A stretch of 64,000 nucleotides of DNA from an uncultured Gammaproteobacteria bacterium (GCA_964533715.1 CAZHNI010000001.1:5514-69513), one strand, 5' to 3'. Numbered from the stretch's first letter, positions 6,410-22,871 are shown. The notes: a model not told the origin generated them from the letters alone. Translations and numbers: made by a program.

Positions 6410-7660
6410 ATGTTTAAGTCAATTAATTTAACAGAAAATATCCAGGGCGCCTGGCAGATTTTAAGCCGTAATAAAGTACGGTCTTTTTTGACTATGCTTG
6501 GTATTATTATTGGTGTTATGGCGGTAGTGGTTATAATGTCTGTTGGGGCGGGGGCGCAGAGCTTGATTCTTAACCAAATTAAGGGTTTAGGGTCTAATTT
6601 GGTTGGAGTTCTTCCCGGAAAATCTGATGATAAAGGACCGCCAGCCGTGGTTTTTGGTATTGTAATAACAACTTTAACAACCGAAGACGGCCGGGCAATA
6701 ATGCAGTCGGGTGATTCGCATTTAGTTGCGCAGACCGCTTATGTGCGTGGGGTCGATACTGTAAAGGCTGGCGATATTTCTGACGACACTACGTTTGTTG
6801 GGGTTAGCGCCACATATCCGCAGGTCGAATCAATTACCGTTGCAAATGGACGCTTTTTTTCTGATGAAGAAGAACGTACCTTTGGACGAGTAGCCGTGTT
6901 AGGTAGCGAAACCGCGGATACGCTATTCCCCGATATGGATCCAATTGGTCAAATAATAAAAATAAAACAAACCAATTTTCAAGTTATTGGAGTGGTTAGC
7001 AAAAGAGGGGTGAGTGGTTTCCAAAATCAAGATAATCAAATTTTTGTTCCGGTGAGTACCGCTCAAAAATTGTTGCTTGGCATTAATTATGTTAATTTTA
7101 TTCGTGTAAAAGTTGATTCGGCAGAAAATGTTGATGCAAGTGTGGAACACATAAAAGAAATTTTACGCACACGACATGAAATTTCTAACCCAGAAAATGA
7201 TGATTTTTCCGTACGTTCTTCTAATCAGGGTCTAGATGTTTTAACGAGCGTAACGAACGCACTTCGTTTCTTTTTGGCGGCAATTGCAGCCTTGTCTTTG
7301 GTGGTTGGAGGTATTGGTATTATGAATATAATGCTCGCGGCAGTTGAAGAAAGAACTAAAGAAATTGGGCTTCGAAAAGCTGTTGGGGCAACTACTCGGC
7401 ACATTACATTACAATTTCTTATTGAGACAGTAATGATTACGTTTGTTGGAGGTATTATTGGTGTTATTCTTGGTATTCTTATTTCTATAATTGTAGCAAA
7501 AGTTGCAGTAAGTAGAGGTTATCAGTGGGATCTGGTTATTACTTTTAGTTCAATTTTTTTAGGTTGTTTTGTTTCAATCATAATTGGCTTTATTTTTGGG
7601 CTCAATCCGGCAAGACGTGCGAGCCGTCTTAGCCCTATGGAAGCATTACGTTACGAATAA
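6410..7660 (+). CDS. ABC transporter permease, FtsX/MacB-like
   Basis: N-terminal TM helix, large periplasmic domain, and three C-terminal TM helices with FtsX-like conservation (GIGIMNIMLAAVEERTKEIGLRKAVGA). Confidence 0.65.
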   Translation: MFKSINLTENIQGAWQILSRNKVRSFLTMLGIIIGVMAVVVIMSVGAGAQSLILNQIKGLGSNLVGVLPGKSDDKGPPAVVFGIVITTLTTEDGRAIMQSGDSHLVAQTAYVRGVDTVKAGDISDDTTFVGVSATYPQVESITVANGRFFSDEEERTFGRVAVLGSETADTLFPDMDPIGQIIKIKQTNFQVIGVVSKRGVSGFQNQDNQIFVPVSTAQKLLLGINYVNFIRVKVDSAENVDASVEHIKEILRTRHEISNPENDDFSVRSSNQGLDVLTSVTNALRFFLAAIAALSLVVGGIGIMNIMLAAVEERTKEIGLRKAVGATTRHITLQFLIETVMITFVGGIIGVILGILISIIVAKVAVSRGYQWDLVITFSSIFLGCFVSIIIGFIFGLNPARRASRLSPMEALRYE

Positions 7661-7667
7661 AAGACAT

Positions 7668-8903
7668 ATGAATTTTGCTCCTGTCATTCTGGCTTATCAA
7701 TCTCTCCTTCGCCAGAAACGTCGAAGTCTTTTAACCATGCTTGCTATTGCTATTGGTATTGCAGCCGTTATAACTATTATGGGCGCCGGCAAAGGAATGC
7801 AACGTTTTGTGCTTGGACAGCTTGATGTATTTGGGCCAGATACATTTAATATTGAAACACGGGTGCCAAATAGCAAAAAGAATTCTAGCGGTTTTGGATC
7901 AGTAGGCATTACCATTACTTCTCTTAAAGAGCGAGATCTTAGCGCGATATTAAAACTCCCTAATATTTTAGCAGCTTATGGCATGGTTAATGGCCAGGAA
8001 GCAGTCAGCTATCAGGGGCAAATTAAAAAAGTGGCACTCATGGGGCATGGCGCCGGTATGTTATATGTGGATACATTTACGATAGATTTAGGGCGATTTT
8101 ACACTCAAGATGAAGAAGATAGTTTGGCGCAGGTGGCGGTGCTTGGTGCCACCGCCAAAGAAAAGTTATTTGGCGATGAAGACCCAATTGACAAATTAGT
8201 TTATATTCGTGGCAAACCTTTTCGTGTTATTGGAGCGATGGGGAAGCGGGGTTCGGCATTTTTTCTTGATATGGACAACCAGATTACTTTGCCTGCGAAA
8301 ACCATGCAAAAGAAATTGCTGGGCATTGATTATTACCAGATGATTATTGGAAAAATGAGAGATGGCTCGCGAGCTGACCAAACCGCCCTAGAAGTTGCTG
8401 AAGTTATTAGAAGCAATCATTCTATAACCAATTCGGATAGAGACGATTTTGCAGTTAATACCACCGCCGATGCCAGGAAAACCTTAACTACCGTAACGGG
8501 AGGAGTTACCATGCTTTTGGTGGCGCTAGTTTGTATTTCACTTATTGTGGGCGGGGTTGGTATTATGAATATTATGTATGTTTCGGTTGCAGAACGTACT
8601 TTTGAAATTGGTCTACGTAAGTCGCTCGGGGCGCGTTCTAAAGATATCTTATTACAATTTTTGGCAGAGGCGGTTCTTATTACTTTGGGCGGCGGAGTGG
8701 TTGGGGTAGTACTTGGTACAATATTGGCCTTTATTATTTATATTGTGGCGGTTTCATTTAATTTTAAATGGGTTTTTAGTGTACCACTTTCTTCTATTGC
8801 CTTGGCCGTAGGTTTTTCGGCGACCATCGGTCTCCTGTTTGGTTTATACCCAGCTAAAAAAGCAGCGGCCTTAAGCCCAATTGATGCCTTAAGACGCGAA
8901 TAA
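7668..8903 (+). CDS. ABC transporter permease, FtsX/MacB-like (second copy)
   Basis: Paralogue of the previous gene (GVGIMNIMYVSVAERTFEIGLRKSLGA). Start moved to ATG 7668 just past the upstream stop; the tracked ORF begins inside the upstream gene. Confidence 0.65.
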   Translation: MNFAPVILAYQSLLRQKRRSLLTMLAIAIGIAAVITIMGAGKGMQRFVLGQLDVFGPDTFNIETRVPNSKKNSSGFGSVGITITSLKERDLSAILKLPNILAAYGMVNGQEAVSYQGQIKKVALMGHGAGMLYVDTFTIDLGRFYTQDEEDSLAQVAVLGATAKEKLFGDEDPIDKLVYIRGKPFRVIGAMGKRGSAFFLDMDNQITLPAKTMQKKLLGIDYYQMIIGKMRDGSRADQTALEVAEVIRSNHSITNSDRDDFAVNTTADARKTLTTVTGGVTMLLVALVCISLIVGGVGIMNIMYVSVAERTFEIGLRKSLGARSKDILLQFLAEAVLITLGGGVVGVVLGTILAFIIYIVAVSFNFKWVFSVPLSSIALAVGFSATIGLLFGLYPAKKAAALSPIDALRRE

Positions 8904-9025
8904 TTAAAAATAAAAGCTTGCACGATAAGTGAGTGTTTTATAGTTAAACTTTGTTTATTTTTAAGCTAGACGGTTGCTTTTTGTGTTTAAAAATGTTACG
9001 CTGAAACTAGCCTTAAAAGCCTGTT

Positions 9026-10825
9026 TTGGATTATATGAATGATACACAAAAAATTAAAGATCGAATTGATTTGGCACAACTTATTGGCGAATATATTCCC
9101 ATTAAAAAAGCCGGGATCAATTGGAAGGCACCATGCCCGTTTCACCATGAAAAAACCCCTTCTTTTATGGTGCATCCCGAGAAACAAATTTGGCATTGTT
9201 TTGGATGTGGCAAGGGAGGGGATGTGTTTACTTTTATACAGGAAATCGAAGGCTTTGATTTTATTGAAGCTTTAAAATTTTTAGCCAAACGAGCGGGGAT
9301 TGAACTTGATTTTAGCAAACAAAGCATGGTTGATTCGAGTTTGCGTAATCGCGTGCAGGATATTAATGTAAAGGCGGCAGCTTTTTTTAATCATATTTTA
9401 ATAAATCACCCAGCCGGAAAAATCGCGCGCGATTATCTTGCAAACCGTGGGGTTACAGCTAGCTCAATTACAAATTGGCAAATTGGTTTTGTACCTGACC
9501 AATGGAATTTGTTAACAAAATATTTTTTAAACAAAGGGGTTGGAATTGATGATTTGGTGGCATCAGGTTTAATAATTAAAAAAGAAGGAGCCGATACTAC
9601 GCGAGGCGTAGGAGTGTATGACCGATTCCGGGGGCGTATTATGTTTCCTATTTGTGATGCCCATGGATCCGTAGTGGGTTTTACCGGGCGTATTTTGGTT
9701 GAAACAGAGAATTCGGGGGGGAAATATGTGAATACACCACAAACGGTGTTGTACGATAAATCCAAAGTTTTATACGGTCTTAACAAGGCTAAAGCTGAAA
9801 TTAAGACAAAAGACTTGGTAGTGTTGGTAGAAGGTCAGATGGATGTGATAGCTTGTCATCAAGCAGGCATGACCAATGTTGTGGCCGCTTCGGGAACCGC
9901 GCTTACTTTTGAACAAGTTAAACTCCTAAAACGTTATACCAATAATGTCGCCATGGCTTTTGATGCTGACGCGGCCGGTCAAAATGCAGGTAAACGTGGA
10001 AGCGAAATTGCTCTTGAAGCCGGAATGCGAGTGCGTGTTATTGAAATCCCTAAGGGGTTTGCCAAAGATGCTGATGAATGCCTTAAAAAGGATCCAGCGG
10101 TGTGGTTTAAGGCTGTGGCGGAGGCATCAGAGCTTATGGAATGGTACTTCAGAACTGTCTGCCGAGAAAAACGAGGTACCACTCCAGTTGAAAAACAAAA
10201 GATTGTTGATGAATTAGCCCCACAAATTGCCCGTATTCCTTATGCAGTTGAACGTGAAAGTTGGCTTAAGCGTTTAGGGGATGAAATTGGAATTGGAGTA
10301 GATGTACTCCGTGCCGAGTTAAAACAAAAACATAAAATATTGCCAAAAAATAATTTTCAGAGTGTCGCGCCAAGTACTTTAGAAAAATTAGAACAGCTTG
10401 ATTCTTTGTGGCAAGAATTTTGGTCTATTTTATTTAAGTTTCCGGGCTGTTACAGGGTCGTTCGCTCTCATTTAAAGCCAATGTTTGCAGAATCGAGCAT
10501 TTTTTCGGGCCTTTACGAGATATGCGAAAAAATGTATAATACTAACCAATCGTTATCTTTAGAAGAACTACGAAATTTGCTTGCTCGTGAAGGAAAGGAA
10601 AATGAAATTGATGTTTTGTTGCTCCGCCCCTATAAAAATGTATCTGAATTAGGACAAAAAGAAGCGGAATTGGAATTAGTCCAATTGGCCGAGCGTATTC
10701 GCGGCGAGTGGCGAAAGAAAAGAGGTCAAGAAATTCAGCGTGGTATTTTAGCAGCCGAACGTTCTGGAAATAAAGACAGTGTGAGTGCACTACTTGTTGA
10801 ACTGGAAAATTTGTCTTTGCAGTAA
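9026..10825 (+). CDS. dnaG: DNA primase
   Basis: CHC2 zinc finger (CPFHHEKTPSFMVHPEKQIWHCFGCGKGGD) and Toprim domain (LVEGQMDVIA...AFDADAAG). Confidence 0.85.
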   Translation: MDYMNDTQKIKDRIDLAQLIGEYIPIKKAGINWKAPCPFHHEKTPSFMVHPEKQIWHCFGCGKGGDVFTFIQEIEGFDFIEALKFLAKRAGIELDFSKQSMVDSSLRNRVQDINVKAAAFFNHILINHPAGKIARDYLANRGVTASSITNWQIGFVPDQWNLLTKYFLNKGVGIDDLVASGLIIKKEGADTTRGVGVYDRFRGRIMFPICDAHGSVVGFTGRILVETENSGGKYVNTPQTVLYDKSKVLYGLNKAKAEIKTKDLVVLVEGQMDVIACHQAGMTNVVAASGTALTFEQVKLLKRYTNNVAMAFDADAAGQNAGKRGSEIALEAGMRVRVIEIPKGFAKDADECLKKDPAVWFKAVAEASELMEWYFRTVCREKRGTTPVEKQKIVDELAPQIARIPYAVERESWLKRLGDEIGIGVDVLRAELKQKHKILPKNNFQSVAPSTLEKLEQLDSLWQEFWSILFKFPGCYRVVRSHLKPMFAESSIFSGLYEICEKMYNTNQSLSLEELRNLLAREGKENEIDVLLLRPYKNVSELGQKEAELELVQLAERIRGEWRKKRGQEIQRGILAAERSGNKDSVSALLVELENLSLQ

Positions 10826-10855
10826 TTTTTTTAGTTACTATTCAATATTTTTTGC

Positions 10856-12151
10856 ATGCCAAAAATACATAAGCGTAAAAAAAATACTGTACATAAAAAG
10901 TCGGCTCCCAAAAAGCCTAAAAAAGCTTTTAAACCAAGCCGCAAGATAACGGCTAAAAAAAGCCATATTTCGGCCCGTCACTCTAAAGCACTCAAAAAAG
11001 CCAAGCATTTTTTTATTTCGAAAAATAAGAAAAATATTCAGCCAGTAGAGGAGGTTGAAGAGCCGACAACAGCCCAATTGTGGGAGCTTGTTAAGAAGGG
11101 GCGTAATCGCGGTTTTATTACGGAAATTGAATTATTGCAGTTTTTACCTCGACCCGAGCATTATTTGGATTTATATGAAGGATTTGTTGAACTTTTAGAA
11201 AAAAATGGTGTTACTGTTGTTGAAACTGCCCCAAGTTTACTTGGTGGAAAAATACAGAATCAAGATGTTTTAAAACAATTTCAAGGAGCACAGCCGGACA
11301 TGGATGTGCCGTTTGATCTTGGCCAAATTTCATCCGATTCAATTCAAATGTATTTGCGTGAAATTGGTAAAATTCCGCTTTTGTCTGGTGAAGAAGAAGT
11401 GGCTCTCGCTAAACGTAAAGAGCGTAACGACAAAGCCGCCGAACGCAAACTCATTGAGGCTAATCTTCGTTTGGTGGTATCAATTGCTAAAAAATTTGTA
11501 GGCAAAACACTATCGCTTCTCGACCTCATTCAAGAAGGAAATATTGGTTTATTCCGGGCGGTTAAAAAGTTTGATTATCGCAAAGGATATAAATTTTCTA
11601 CATATGCCACCTGGTGGATTCGGCAGGCGATAACTCGCGCTTTGGCCGACCAATCACGCACGATTCGTATTCCGGTCCACATGGTAGAAACGATCAATCG
11701 TTTCCAGCAAGTTCAACGTCGTCTCCAGCAAGATTTGGGACGTGACCCAACCCCAGAAGAATTGGCCGCTGAGCTTGGTGAAGAAGTGGATAAAATTTAT
11801 CACATTATTAAAATTTCCCAGGATACCATGTCCTTGGAAGTGCCAATTGGCGATGAGGACGAAGAGACACAGCTATCTGATTTTATTGAGGACGTTAAGA
11901 ATGTGTCTCCAGATCGTTCTGCCGCCCTTCAGATATTGCGAGATTATGTTCAACATGCCATTAAAGACTTAACACCACGTGAACAAAAGATTTTAGAAAT
12001 GCGCTTTGGTTTATCGGATGGAGTAACTCATACACTTGAAGAAGTGGGGCAAGAGTTTGGGGTGACGCGTGAGCGTATTCGGCAGATTGAAGCCAAAGCC
12101 CTTGAGAAAATTCAACAAACCGATATCGTTAGCAAATTGAGAGACTATTAG
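10856..12151 (+). CDS. rpoD: RNA polymerase sigma-70 factor RpoD with a Lys-rich N-terminal extension
   Basis: Regions 1.2-4 are conserved: [11 protein letters not shown], the RpoD box [37 protein letters not shown], and region 4 [21 protein letters not shown]. The first ~60 aa are a KKxxK-rich basic tail. Confidence 0.85.
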
Positions 12152-19404: not shown

Positions 19405-19475
19405 GCGGGTATAGTATAGTGGTAATATGTAACCTTCCCAAGGTTAAGCGACGGGTTCGATTCCCGTTACCCGCT
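19405..19475 (+). tRNA. tRNA-Gly (anticodon CCC)
   Basis: Acceptor GCGGGTA/TACCCGC, anticodon stem TAACC/GGTTA with loop TTCCCAA, T-arm ACGGG-TTCGATT-CCCGT, discriminator U; CCA not encoded. Confidence 0.75.
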
Positions 19476-20004
19476 CATTAAAAATCCCCCGCAGTATGAG
19501 CGAGGGATTTTAGTTGTTTATTTTTTAAGACTCTTTGGTTTCATCCAGTAATTTTTACGACGGAATTTTTTTGTTTTTCGTGCCAAGGAGTGGGCTTTTT
19601 TAGTATTTTTTTTGGCGTGTTTTAAACGAGAGCGCAAGGCTGTGTTCATAAGATGATTATTTAAAAGTTTGGGTATAATAGCAGATTATCTTTAAAAATG
19701 CAAATTTTGCTTAGTCAAGCAAAAACTTTTCATTAAATTTTAAATTATTATTCGAGTAATTTAATTACCTAACCGTTGGTTGATACTCAGAATAGTACAC
19801 CTATAAAGTACACCTATACTTGACACCTGTAACAAATTGGTGTAGGCTTGTTTTGCCAAACTCCTGGCTTTTTTTGTTACCCAATTCGCCGCACCGCGCA
19901 TGTGGTGGGTAGGGAACAGGGGAACCACGGAGTTACAACCACGGGCCGCGCACGGCTGCGCGCGCCCACATCCCGCTACGCGAAAGGCGGGAGGAGGATT
20001 GACC

Positions 20005-21513
20005 ATGTTGCATCGCTGGTTCGTCACGATCGTGGCGTTCGCCTTGGCCCTGGGCCTCGGCAGCGCCGTCAACATCAACGTCAACAGCAACCGCCCCGTC
20101 CTCGGCGCCATCGTCGGCGTACTGGGTGAGGGGGTGGCGGCCGCGCAGGTGCCGACCAACTACCGGTTCTTCAACGGCACCGGCGTGAACGGCCAGCTCG
20201 GCCAGCCCTACACGCAGGGCGCTCAGTCGGCGCTCAAGGTGCGGATCGAGAAGGTGTGGCCCACCATCGCCAAGCGGCACCAGAATGCCCTGGAGTATTA
20301 TGGGGTAATGGCCAACACCAACTGGTTCAGGAACAACTCCGGTCCGCAAGGGGAGTACTGGTTCGTGGCGGGGATCTTCCGCCAGCTCACCAAGATCCCG
20401 CTGGACGACCGAAACAAGACAAACGAGGCACTGGTGGGAAAGATCTCATCGGATCCTGACTATGTCGACTCGCTGATGATCATGAACAAGACCGGCGCGC
20501 TCATCAGCGGTGGGTACGTGGGCGAGGTGCACGTCTATTTCGGCGATGTGAAGGGTGGGTGCACGCCGAACGCCCTGGCCTACTACTTCTCTCCCCCTGA
20601 CATTTCGGGGATGAAGGTAGTCGGAGTTGTGCTCTGCGGAGACGACGGCGTCCGGGTGGCCAACTTGCCAACCGACTTCGGTGGTTTCGATACTACCCTG
20701 GAAAGCATCTTCGTCCACGAGTTCGCGCATGCCGTCGACGACGTACACAAGGCAACCACAGGCAATGAGCTGAACATCTCGGATATCATGGAGATGGATC
20801 GGTCCTGCATCCGGGTCTACGGGTTGAAGGGGATCTTGGCGTTGGTGGGGAACTCGGCCTACGATCCGCTCACGTATCTCGATCTGCGAACCATCGCGGA
20901 TTGGTACCCGATCTGGGTGTCGGTGATCAACTACAATTACGATGCTTCGAAGCAGATACTGGTCGGGATGAACGTGGCGGGCGGGTCGTGCGGAGGTGTG
21001 CAAGACGATGTCGGGACGTGCAAGAACGGGCAGACCCCCGTTGCCGCTTGCGGCGGCCTCCCCATCGGCGACGCCGGCACCCCTACCGACGGGGGCATAG
21101 CACCCCTCGACCTCGGCGGCAGCTTCAGAACCCCTTGCACCTCCGACTCGCAGTGCGCCAGCAAGGTGTGCCAAGACGGCCTTTGCCGCAGCCCGTACTG
21201 CGGCAACGGAGTTTTGAACCGCGTGGGTGTCGGAGGAGGCTCCGGTGAGTCCGACATTGACTGCGGAGGGGAGGAATGCGGCAGGTGCGCCGATGGCAAG
21301 AAGTGCTTCGCGGCCACCGACTGCAAGTCCGGCGTGTGCACCGGCGGCAAGTGCGCGGGGGGCGGTGATGTCCAGGGCGGCTGCGATGTCGGCACCGGAC
21401 GCGGTGACCGCAACTGGGGCGCCATTGTGCTCCTGCTCGCTGTGCTCCTCATCTTTTCGTCGGCCATCGCCGCTTGGCGGCAGTTCGAACGGAAGCAAGG
21501 GCGTCGCACCTAG
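20005..21513 (+). CDS. secreted, C-terminally membrane-anchored zinc metalloprotease-like protein with a Cys-rich stalk
   Basis: RBS GGAGGAGG 8 nt upstream of ATG 20005. Signal peptide MLHRWFVTIVAFALALGLGSA. HEFAHAVDDVH, an HExxH motif with a third His at metzincin spacing. Repeated CxxGxC modules (CGNGVLN, CGGEECGRC, CKSGVCTGGKC), a C-terminal TM helix and a basic tail. Confidence 0.6.
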   Translation: MLHRWFVTIVAFALALGLGSAVNINVNSNRPVLGAIVGVLGEGVAAAQVPTNYRFFNGTGVNGQLGQPYTQGAQSALKVRIEKVWPTIAKRHQNALEYYGVMANTNWFRNNSGPQGEYWFVAGIFRQLTKIPLDDRNKTNEALVGKISSDPDYVDSLMIMNKTGALISGGYVGEVHVYFGDVKGGCTPNALAYYFSPPDISGMKVVGVVLCGDDGVRVANLPTDFGGFDTTLESIFVHEFAHAVDDVHKATTGNELNISDIMEMDRSCIRVYGLKGILALVGNSAYDPLTYLDLRTIADWYPIWVSVINYNYDASKQILVGMNVAGGSCGGVQDDVGTCKNGQTPVAACGGLPIGDAGTPTDGGIAPLDLGGSFRTPCTSDSQCASKVCQDGLCRSPYCGNGVLNRVGVGGGSGESDIDCGGEECGRCADGKKCFAATDCKSGVCTGGKCAGGGDVQGGCDVGTGRGDRNWGAIVLLLAVLLIFSSAIAAWRQFERKQGRRT

Positions 21514-21543
21514 TGCCCCCCACGTGAAGTAAAATCATCCGCA

Positions 21544-21590
21544 CCCCGGCCAACCCGGCCGCGTGCGCGGACGAGGTTGGGTTGGCCGGG
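21544..21590 (+). terminator. GC-rich hairpin at the 3' end of the island gene
   Basis: Perfect 11-bp stem CCGGCCAACCC / GGGTTGGCCGG; no T-run (high-GC style). Confidence 0.4.
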
Positions 21591-21668
21591 TAGGCGAGTA
21601 AAATAAAACTAAGAAAAAATGGAGGGGGAGACCGATCGACTCCTCAAATCGATCATCTACAAAAACAA

Positions 21669-21697
21669 CCTTCTAAATTGAAGGCTGTTTTTGTTTT
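21669..21697 (+). terminator. AT-rich rho-independent terminator
   Basis: CCTTC-taaatt-GAAGG stem followed by CTGTTTTTGTTTTT. Confidence 0.45.
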
Positions 21698-21857
21698 TAA
21701 GCATGCTCGCTGTGGATAAGTGGTATAGAAGAGGATTTTTAAGCATGTTACTGTAACATACATGATTATGGTTTTACTTTAATTTATTATCGCGTCTTGT
21801 ATCCACGCGGTCTAATGGTCGATCCGTGATTTAGTAAGACGTTTTAATTATGTATAT

Positions 21858-22871
21858 ATGAGTCAAAAAATAATGGCAGAGTATATTTGGATGGACGGCC
21901 AGTCCACCGCAAAGTTGCGTTCCAAAACCAAAATTGTTGATGGGCCCATTTTGAAAATAAGCGATTTACCAGATTGGGGGTTTGATGGCTCAAGCACGTA
22001 CCAGGCAGAAGGACATTTTAGCGATTGTCAATTAAAACCAGTCAAGTATATACCCGATCCAATTAGAGGTGGTAATAATGTTTTGGTAATGTGTGAGGTT
22101 TTAAATGCAGACGGTTCTACTCATGTTAGTAATACCCGGGCACACTTACGTGAGGTATCAGAAAAATATAGATTTGAGGAAGCGTGGTTTGGTATTGAGC
22201 AAGAATATACCTTTTTTAAAGGTGCCAAGCCGCTCGGTTGGCCAGATAATGGTTTTCCGGCGCCGCAAGGCGGCTATTATTGTGGCGTTGGTTCGGATGA
22301 GGTGTTTGGCAGGCCAATTGTGGAAAAACACATGCAAATGTGTTTGAGTGCGGGGCTATCAATCTGTGGAATTAATTCGGAAGTGATGCCAGCGCAATGG
22401 GAGTGGCAAGTTGGGCCTTTAGGCCCACTCGAAGTGGCCGACGAACTGTGGTTGTCTCGCTGGCTTCTATACCGAGTAGCCGAGGATTTTGATGTTTCAG
22501 CCACCTTGTATCCTAAGCCGGTAAAGGGAGACTGGAACGGGGCTGGTGCACATACCAATTTTAGTACCAAAGCCATGCGCGCTCCAGGCGGCCTCGAGGT
22601 AGTTAAGGCAGCTTGCGAAAAATTAAAGATGAAGCACAAGGAGCATATTGCAGTTTATGGGGAACACAACGAAGAGCGTTTAACTGGCAAACACGAAACC
22701 TCAAGCATTAACGATTTTCGCTATGGAGTAAGTGACCGCGGTGCATCTATCCGAATTCCTATGGCCACTGCTAATAATGGGATGGGTTATTTAGAAGATC
22801 GTCGTCCAGCCGCTAATATGGATCCTTACAAGGTGTGTGCTCGATTGTTGGAAACGGTGTGTGGGAGTTAG
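21858..22871 (+). CDS. glnII: glutamine synthetase type II (eukaryote-like GSII)
   Basis: N-terminal EYIWMDG...LRSKTK and the FGIEQEYTFF catalytic motif. Length (~337 aa) is typical of GSII rather than dodecameric GSI. Confidence 0.7.
   Translation: MSQKIMAEYIWMDGQSTAKLRSKTKIVDGPILKISDLPDWGFDGSSTYQAEGHFSDCQLKPVKYIPDPIRGGNNVLVMCEVLNADGSTHVSNTRAHLREVSEKYRFEEAWFGIEQEYTFFKGAKPLGWPDNGFPAPQGGYYCGVGSDEVFGRPIVEKHMQMCLSAGLSICGINSEVMPAQWEWQVGPLGPLEVADELWLSRWLLYRVAEDFDVSATLYPKPVKGDWNGAGAHTNFSTKAMRAPGGLEVVKAACEKLKMKHKEHIAVYGEHNEERLTGKHETSSINDFRYGVSDRGASIRIPMATANNGMGYLEDRRPAANMDPYKVCARLLETVCGS

Follow-up and report, generated by a model that had tools for sequence, protein, structure and literature searches.

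Horizontal gene transfer (HGT) is frequent in Patescibacteria, where it involves single genes as well as islands, and most of the transfers occur within Patescibacteria (Gios et al. 2025, PMC12455944). Among secreted bacterial proteins, those of the MYXO-CTERM type end in a motif that comprises an invariant Cys, a transmembrane helix and, at the very end of the chain, a cytoplasmic cluster rich in Arg (PMC11980579); in TraA this motif follows a signal peptide, a head and a Cys-rich repeat stalk (PMC11980579; PMC3325183). We analysed a stretch of 64,000 nt of an environmental contig (GCA_964533715.1, CAZHNI010000001.1:5514-69513; hereafter the window), in which a high-GC island at positions 19880-21597 holds one gene for a protein with this same succession of parts. 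Like the islands described in Patescibacteria, it is foreign DNA whose composition departs from that of the streamlined genome of the candidate phyla radiation (CPR) around it, and it lies in a slot that in relatives contains restriction-modification systems; unlike them (PMC12455944), it consists of one gene only, has neither an integrase nor att repeats, exceeds the host by 23 GC points and has a donor apparently outside the CPR. We think that the island is probably a genuine and very recent single-gene acquisition by a CPR genome from a high-GC, probably Myxococcota-like donor. A preliminary description of the stretch had already proposed a recent, unameliorated horizontal acquisition, and both the foreign composition and the one-gene insert at a hotspot support this proposal.

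The GC content of the island was 0.636 (63.6%), compared with 0.407±0.020 (40.7%) in all the other 1.7-kb windows of the 64 kb (z=11.5), the highest of which reached 0.471 (47.1%). Its tetranucleotide distance from the background corresponded to z=19. Along the sequence, the GC content of 300-nt windows passed from 0.30-0.41 before 19800 to 0.58-0.68 at 19800-21600 and then to 0.35, and with 40-nt windows the edges were found at about 19880 and about 21597, each of them dropping back within about 20 nt. Equally high-GC segments elsewhere would argue against an island, and no second comparable segment was found in the 64-kb window, in which no other 1-kb block exceeded 47%. The GC jump limited to one gene and followed by an abrupt return, as first reported, was therefore confirmed by these measurements.

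Only one coding frame occurs in the island (20005-21513, plus strand), and the long open reading frames (ORFs) visible on the opposite strand are those that commonly arise in high-GC DNA. The codon-position GC values of the gene (GC1/2/3) were 0.59/0.47/0.83, and the value at third positions (GC3) was between 0.74 and 0.94 in every 50-codon window; given this uniformity, the mid-gene dip in total GC reflects amino-acid composition and not mosaicism. For comparison, 48 host ORFs had a GC3 of 0.35±0.06, with a maximum of 0.49, so that the codon-usage and the tetranucleotide comparisons, both suggested as checks in the preliminary description, set the gene apart from its surroundings.

The deposited NCBI protein model (P0001, 537 aa) starts at the ATG in position 19900. 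The codon-position GC values of the tract 19900-20004 were 0.63/0.71/0.66, that is without periodicity, and the ribosome-binding sequence GGAGGAGG lies 7 nt before the ATG in position 20005; for these two reasons we took the gene to be 20005-21513, coding for 502 aa. The tract 19900-20004 is thus probably 5′ untranslated region (UTR), and the deposited model probably starts 35 codons too early. The strong Shine-Dalgarno (SD) sequence of the preliminary description is this one, and the closing GC-rich hairpin that it mentioned was also found (21545-21590); this hairpin, without a U-tract, is probably the terminator of the donor and the last element of the island. The acquired segment would then be made up of the gene, a 5′ UTR of about 125 nt that includes an SD of its own and a 3′ UTR of about 85 nt that includes the hairpin, both of these flanks being likewise GC-rich.

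The island lies in a family-wide hypervariable slot 3′ of tRNA-Gly(CCC), which in the window corresponds to 19477-21857. We compared this locus with that of six relatives (L162-L167), which have in common the order tRNA-Lys, translin, (Mur ligase), DivIC, PpiC, tRNA-Gly(CCC), collinear with the window. The cargo found after tRNA-Gly(CCC) differs in every one of these genomes (Table 1), and it is this difference in all six that makes the slot family-wide. The end of the cargo in L164-L167 is marked by tRNA-Thr(CGT), after which come FtsE and FtsX. In L163, tRNA-Gly(CCC) and tRNA-Thr(CGT) are adjacent and a HD-domain gene comes after them, which is, in a second and independent assembly, the same kind of one-gene high-GC insert as in the window. 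The description of tRNA-Gly as an integration hotspot next to the island agrees with these data: the tRNA is 404 bp upstream and the locus is variable in the six relatives.

With a sequence of this kind, the first alternative to be weighed is an artefact of assembly or binning, in which the assembler joined a piece of a co-occurring genome of high GC into the CPR contig, the organism itself not carrying the gene. The GC edges are indeed very sharp, the source is a metagenome-assembled genome (MAG), and the protein is a singleton on one contig, with no independent assembly on record. Such a chimera, however, needs two false joins in one 137-kb contig in which both flanks are collinear with the relatives, and the junctions are without long shared sequence or repeats able to mislead a de Bruijn assembler. 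Moreover, the insert amounts to exactly one complete and intact gene with its UTRs, its ribosome-binding site and terminator hairpin included; it reads in the direction of the host genes and sits between them without damaging any, and the same locus holds variable foreign cargo in six other assemblies, in one case as a one-gene high-GC insert. Given that the two flanks lie in the same collinear CPR locus, that a chimera would require two false joins, that the gene is intact and that the site is a hotspot, we consider a real insertion much more likely than a chimera, which in our opinion is unlikely.

A real insertion could also be due to a mobile element that brought the gene along, be it an integrative island targeting tRNA genes, an integron cassette, a phage or a plasmid. 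We regard this origin as improbable. No integrase or transposase occurs within or beside the island, the 3′ end of the tRNA is not duplicated, no direct repeats flank the island beyond T-rich terminator tails, and no att-like sequence is conserved 3′ of the tRNA among the relatives; furthermore, searches in plasmids, phages, IMG/VR, PHROGs and PADLOC gave no match, and the palindrome, inspected by eye, is without attC-type core sites at the island edge. What speaks for mobile cargo is the adjacency of the tRNA, the cassette-like anatomy (one ORF and a 3′ palindrome) and the content of the slot in relatives, where restriction-modification systems and other typical mobile cargo are found.

Specific candidates of this class were also considered and discarded. 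The locus is variable and compositionally deviant, as in a classical tRNA-targeting island, but an integrase and a repeat of the tRNA 3′ end are both absent and the island starts 404 bp past the tRNA. As regards an integron cassette, there is no intI, and the GTTGGGT of the palindrome is internal and not at the edge. Finally, a 13-nt repeat, GGCT(T/G)TTTTTGTT, present at 19866 and 21683, was examined as a target-site duplication and rejected, both copies being ordinary T-rich terminator tails.

The recipient reads as a Patescibacteria (CPR) genome of about 41% GC, near Magasanikbacteria and Uhrbacteria and without close sampled relatives. This reading is based on the homologs of PpiC and of the glutamine synthetase (GS) that lie on the two sides of the slot. 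Precisely, the nearest PpiC homologs are 55-60% identical, and those with a name belong to Candidatus Magasanikbacteria or to the Patescibacteria group, while the nearest GS is that of a Candidatus Uhrbacteria MAG (81% identical). The best PpiC match in JGI data was 58% identical and came from a 2-kb contig. None of the GS-anchored loci that we collected (L001-L077) was syntenic with the window.

In the hydropathy profile of the island protein there are only two strongly hydrophobic segments, one N-terminal (in the 19-residue windows that start at residues 1-9) and one in a C-terminal helix at about residues 472-491. The first of these corresponds to a predicted Sec signal peptide, in agreement with the preliminary description, which had also reported a Cys-rich C-terminal half, a single transmembrane helix and a short basic tail. 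All these parts were recognised: 16 of the 19 Cys fall within residues 329-460, and the helix is followed by RQFERKQGRRT.

The Cys-rich part is related to an unnamed repeat with eight Cys, about 45 aa long, for which no model was found in Pfam or NCBIfam. With HMMER we scanned in full 1.84 billion sequences representing about 15 billion proteins and obtained 1232 matches at E<=0.001; the best 150 non-self matches among them align only to residues ~331-477, usually in 4-27 stretches per protein. From 261 strict units in 100 of 153 proteins we obtained the consensus C.DG..NG.E[ST]D.DCGG..C..C..G..C....DC.S..C....C, whose spacing is respected by residues 399-450 of the island protein. The full unit and the half unit of the island are 44-61% identical to their relatives, among which are the 'DCGG' lipoproteins of Myxococcota type MEW5847248.1, MSP63617.1, MBI5535716.1 and WP_249755752.1, and the whole-protein E-values went down to 1e-56 owing to the many copies. 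The island protein differs from these lipoproteins in having 1.5 copies of the unit, compared with 4-27, in the 8-residue insertion (RVGVGGGS) of its full unit and in its partner domain, which is an orphan and is not fibrinogen-like, Ig-like or FGE-sulfatase-like; the partner domains of the carriers, in fact, are fibrinogen-C-like (YCDxxxxGGGW), Ig-like and FGE-sulfatase-like. Many of the carriers begin with a signal peptide and a Cys that, by eye, resembles a lipobox.

The C-terminal tail reads GGGDVQGGC460DVGTGRGDRNWG, then AIVLLLAVLLIFSSAIAAW, then RQFERKQGRRT. Its sole NCBIfam match was MYXO-CTERM (TIGR03901), with 14.4 bits and E=0.038 over profile positions 2-27 of 34, and the layout is that of this motif: Cys460, 11 residues, the helix, and then four Arg and one Lys in 11 residues. 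The tail of TraA (…QGGAFCCGTTADATPAGSTT-FLLLLAAGLTFL-RPRRPAR) has a parallel layout (PMC11980579), with 13 residues between the Cys and the helix. Among the repeat carriers, the same model gave 25.6 bits for P0022, above its cut-off, and 17.0 for P0033, and one of the carriers, from Allomicrovenator marinus, is a bona fide MYXO-CTERM protein. The island protein is distinguished from the MYXO-CTERM proteins by a repeat that is not of the TIGR02232 type and is matched by no model, by a head unrelated to PA14, and by the present location of its gene in a CPR genome, whose bearer probably lacks an outer membrane.

The preliminary description had compared this type-I membrane topology with that of eukaryotic or actinobacterial surface proteins. 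Considering the tripartite tail, and its sole family match with MYXO-CTERM below threshold, the topology is better read as a bacterial C-terminal sorting signal; an LPXTG motif is absent from the protein. The several NxS/T sequons mentioned together with it are present, five in number, but about 2.8 are expected by composition, so that they are at chance level and not notable. The same holds for the RGD tripeptide (about 0.2 expected).

The head (residues ~48-328) has no recognised homolog. In the full HMMER scan none was found above about 73 bits, the best 150 non-self matches all being confined to the repeat, and weaker ones may lie below this value. A word-index protein search with the 280-aa query gave no match at E<=10, and neither did it return the self protein P0001, so that this negative counts for little. 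No homolog was found in GTDB species genomes, JGI metagenomes, IMG/VR and plasmids, nor with a local phmmer search of all the proteins that we had fetched, nor in Pfam, NCBIfam, PHROGs, PADLOC and PDB sequences, and a search of phage proteins gave only chance matches with DnaC.

Within this domain, residues 238-248 read HEFAHAVDDVH. In composition shuffles the chance expectation was 1.7e-3 for HExxH and 1.4e-5 for HExxHx5H, and the motif is the only HExxH in the ORFs of at least 80 aa of the window; since it is improbable by chance and unique in this sense, a zinc site in the domain seems likely. Three of the six His of the protein fall within it. Two single-sequence runs of AlphaFold2 (AF2), with a predicted local distance difference test (pLDDT) of 35.7 and 33.8, suggested beta strands at about residues 190-220 and a long helix at about 232-252 that holds the motif. 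These low-confidence models thus place the HExxH in a helix after beta strands, as in the zincins. Compared with the PDB by Foldseek, they gave template-modelling (TM) scores <=0.21 when normalised to the query, too low to be meaningful. When a 40-aa query around the motif was searched against the PDB, the sole match was the catalytic fragment of anthrax lethal factor (family M34), FVHEFAHAVDDV vs FIHEFGHAVDDY, with 10 of 12 residues of the active-site segment identical and a non-significant E=0.56. The likeness does not extend beyond the motif in HMM or PDB searches, and PF07737 (M34) did not match the island protein. The third zinc ligand of lethal factor is a Glu about 45 residues downstream; in the island domain the last Glu is E263, and no Glu is found 35-50 residues downstream.

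A metzincin metalloprotease (M10, M12, M7 or M57-like), towards which the preliminary description had pointed because of the spacing of the motif, appears quite improbable. The motif is real and its three His fit HExxHxxGxxH, and Met262 and Met264, 14-16 residues past the third His, could form the Met-turn. The invariant Gly that makes the turn in metzincins, however, is here Asp245, and the helix is predicted, in the low-confidence AF2 models, to run on through that position. No peptidase family of Pfam or NCBIfam matched the island protein even at E<=10, no metzincin chain or other protease was retrieved from the PDB by sequence search at E<=10, and the sole PDB match of the motif, the M34 one described above, is a gluzincin.

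We tentatively regard the head as a divergent zincin-like domain with the function of a catalytic metallopeptidase, giving this assignment slightly less than even chances. The protein might instead serve at the surface as an adhesin or receptor without catalysis, or be a 'dead-on-arrival' import with no function, and in either case the HExxH would not be a working active site. This is possible, though rather doubtful. The repeat family is elsewhere fused to domains of the binding type (fibrinogen-C-like, Ig-like, FGE-sulfatase-like), myxobacterial receptors of the TraA type are likewise built from a variable head, Cys-rich repeats and MYXO-CTERM (PMC11980579; PMC3325183), the head is without a protease-family match, and after a very recent transfer selection has yet to act. 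Against this reading stand a motif so improbable by chance, the concentration of half of the His in it, its 12-residue likeness to a genuine active-site helix and an ORF intact over 502 codons.

As regards the donor, a GC3 of 0.83 would correspond, by the general relation between GC3 and genomic GC, to a genome of about 60-70% GC. That it was a bacterium is suggested by the SD, the hairpin terminator, the lipoprotein-like carriers of the repeat on bacterial contigs and the MYXO-CTERM-like tail. We looked up 20 clusters of carriers of the 8-Cys repeat, and those with a taxon label (4) were from Allomicrovenator (Microvenator) marinus (Bradymonadales), a Myxococcales MAG, a Myxococcota MAG and a Deltaproteobacteria MAG. 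Carriers sit on bacterial contigs with type VI secretion system genes and similar, and two of these contigs had 68.5% and 72% GC. Such evidence, at the level of modules, makes Myxococcota in the broad sense, including Bradymonadales, the probable source.

The preliminary description had proposed as donor either a high-GC bacterium, which agrees with our results, or a eukaryotic host. The origin from a eukaryote (a host protist or an alga), or else from an actinobacterium, would account for the high GC3 and would fit the sequons, the RGD tripeptide and the type-I-like topology. Nevertheless, we find it very improbable: the gene has an SD, a hairpin terminator and no introns, the sequons are at chance level, the relatives of the repeat resemble bacterial lipoproteins and lie on bacterial contigs, the labelled carriers are of the Myxococcota type, and the protein has no LPXTG, its sole sorting-signal match being MYXO-CTERM.

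Several points weigh against the acquisition and the function that we propose. Both junctions are known from the assembly alone. P0001, P0006 and P0007 are singleton 90% clusters on one NCBI contig of 137,070 bp, no PpiC is closer than 60% identity, and look-ups of exact proteins (P0001, its 502-aa form and P0006) found no independent assembly on record. No search retrieved a donor copy, either of the whole gene or of the head, which is odd for an unameliorated transfer, and just 4 of the 20 carrier clusters bear a taxon label. The tail does not reach the curated MYXO-CTERM cut-off of 20 bits and contains fewer Arg than the consensus. As to the protease assignment, its basis is the motif of 11 residues, the AF2 models (pLDDT 34-36) and the fold search (TM scores <=0.21) being of no use for it. 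Lastly, the expression of the gene is no more than plausible, considering the promoter-like hexamers of host type on the left of the island and the intrinsic terminator of host type on its right.

If the island was acquired as we propose, its integration was probably due to illegitimate or microhomology recombination of DNA taken up by the cell. The protein would be exported by the Sec system through its N-terminal signal peptide and retained in the cytoplasmic membrane by its C-terminal transmembrane helix. In the donor this helix was probably part of a sorting signal of the MYXO-CTERM type, which in the CPR recipient would remain unprocessed unless a myxosortase is present. The disulfide-rich repeat stalk would hold the orphan domain of about 280 aa outward, where HEFAHAVDDVH would most likely bind zinc, making the protein a putative divergent zincin-type metallopeptidase on the cell surface.

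The coordinates of all the features are in Table 1. Upstream of the island the neighbours are a GT2 glycosyltransferase, tRNA-Lys, translin, Mur ligase, DivIC, a PpiC/SurA-like isomerase and tRNA-Gly(CCC); downstream there are the short GS, a PAP2 protein and an archaeal-type ProRS, nearly all of the neighbours being on the plus strand. In the flanks of the island Rfam recognised the tRNA only, with no riboswitch or other RNA family.

In the left spacer, within the tract 19795-19846, GTACACCTATA occurs twice in exact tandem form, 13 nt apart, a third time in a degenerate form (TGACACCTGTA) and once as a partial copy in inverted orientation (TTGGTGTAGGC). This array overlaps the promoter-like hexamers that precede the left edge of the island by 35-85 nt, and the exact 11-mer is found nowhere else in the window; it could be operator-like.

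On the right, the leader of the GS gene (21769-21840) is 74% identical over 69 nt to the tract 12687-12770 of L162, including GTTTTACTTTAATT and CGCGGT.TAA.GGTCGA..CG.G, and the N-terminus of the GS is 71% identical to that of L162 over the first 90 residues. The leader has no match in Rfam and may be a promoter or leader element. The GSII-like GS itself (337 aa, 21858-22871) is 65-81% identical across MAGs labelled as Uhrbacteria, Saccharibacteria, other Patescibacteria, Neomarinimicrobiota and Gammaproteobacteria, in unrelated contexts (L001-L077), which suggests that this gene is widely exchanged between phyla. Further upstream, a gene of the translin family (PF01997; 15909-16481), unusual for bacteria, is conserved in this CPR lineage and is directly upstream of the Mur ligase gene in the relatives except L166.

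Table 1. Features of the island, of its flanks and of the corresponding slot in six relatives. Positions refer to the window or, for the cargo of L162-L167, to the locus named.
Feature	Position	Strand	Basis or remarks
Host tRNA-Gly(CCC), conserved left anchor of the slot	19405..19476	+	ARAGORN; Rfam tRNA, 63.7 bits; follows PpiC in L162-L167
Host-type AT-rich spacer, GC 0.30-0.40	19477..19879	+	No similarity to relatives 3′ of the tRNA
Terminator hairpin of the tRNA	19481-19511	+	In the spacer
Promoter-like hexamers	19780-19809; TTGACA 19820-25 / TAGGCT 19843-48	+	Sequence; 30-100 nt left of the island
Tandem GTACACCTATA pair	19795-19818	+	In the spacer
Foreign high-GC island: one gene with its own 5′/3′ untranslated flanks	19880..21597	+	GC, tetranucleotides, sharp 40-nt edges
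Shine-Dalgarno sequence GGAGGAGG	19990..19997	+	Read from the sequence; 7 nt before ATG 20005
Coding sequence, 502 aa and TAG stop	20005..21513	+	GC3 0.83, uniform; preferred start
Predicted Sec signal peptide, MLHRWFVTIVAFALALGLGSA followed by V, without lipobox Cys	20005..20070	+	N-terminal hydropathy peak; presumed cleavage site
Orphan extracellular domain, residues ~48-328 (~280 aa), putative zincin-like metallopeptidase	20146..20988	+	No homolog; low-confidence AF2
HEFAHAVDDVH, motif of zinc-binding type, residues 238-248	20716..20748	+	Sequence
Cys/Gly-rich stalk, residues 329-460	20989..21384	+	Repeat homology
Half unit of the 8-Cys repeat, residues 378-394	21136-21186	+	C-terminal half of the unit
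Full unit of the 8-Cys repeat, residues 399-450, with 8-aa insertion	21199-21354	+	All eight Cys and ESDIDCGG core
Tripartite C-terminal tail: GGC(460)DVG motif, transmembrane helix ~472-491 (21418-21477), basic RQFERKQGRRT	21358..21510	+	TIGR03901 below cut-off; hydropathy
GC-rich hairpin, 16-23 bp, without U-tract; probable donor terminator	21545..21590	+	Inverted repeat; RNA fold z=-6.5 for 21510-21720
Host-type intrinsic terminator (hairpin and T-run), ~60 nt past the island	21659..21700	+	Inverted repeat, fold; would end read-through transcripts
Native right flank: conserved GS leader and GS gene (21858-22871)	21769..22871	+	L162 alignment; Pfam Gln-synt_N, Gln-synt_C
L162 cargo: five genes, then GS			
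L163 cargo: single HD-domain gene	7393-8115	reverse	GC 63.5%; GC3 0.85 vs 0.5-0.6 in neighbours
L164 cargo: RadC-DNA methylase, HaeII-type endonuclease, PD-(D/E)XK gene	7146-11411		
L165 cargo: MazG-like gene, PD-(D/E)XK gene, lipoprotein, RF-1-domain gene, 399-aa ORF			
L166 cargo: RF-1-domain gene, YgjP-like gene, cation ATPase			
L167 cargo: three small ORFs			

Current concepts are left unchanged by these results, HGT into Patescibacteria being already documented, single genes included. The 280-aa head is a candidate new family with a motif of the zincin type, and the slot from tRNA-Gly(CCC) to tRNA-Thr(CGT) is a concrete hotspot in which the entry of foreign DNA into streamlined genomes without an integrase can be studied. 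To our knowledge, the hosts of most CPR lineages of the Parcubacteria type are unknown, and an unameliorated gene with modules of the Myxococcota type is a testable lead on the physical neighbours of the CPR organism. It is conceivable, although we give this scenario a low probability, that the CPR bacterium took the gene directly from a cell of Myxococcota/Bradymonadales on which it lives or by which it is preyed upon, and that on its own membrane it displays towards this partner a head-and-stalk protein of myxobacterial style, with a new zinc-protease-like fold. If this were true, the island would be a pointer to an association between CPR and Myxococcota as host, and the N-terminal domain would found a new metallopeptidase family.

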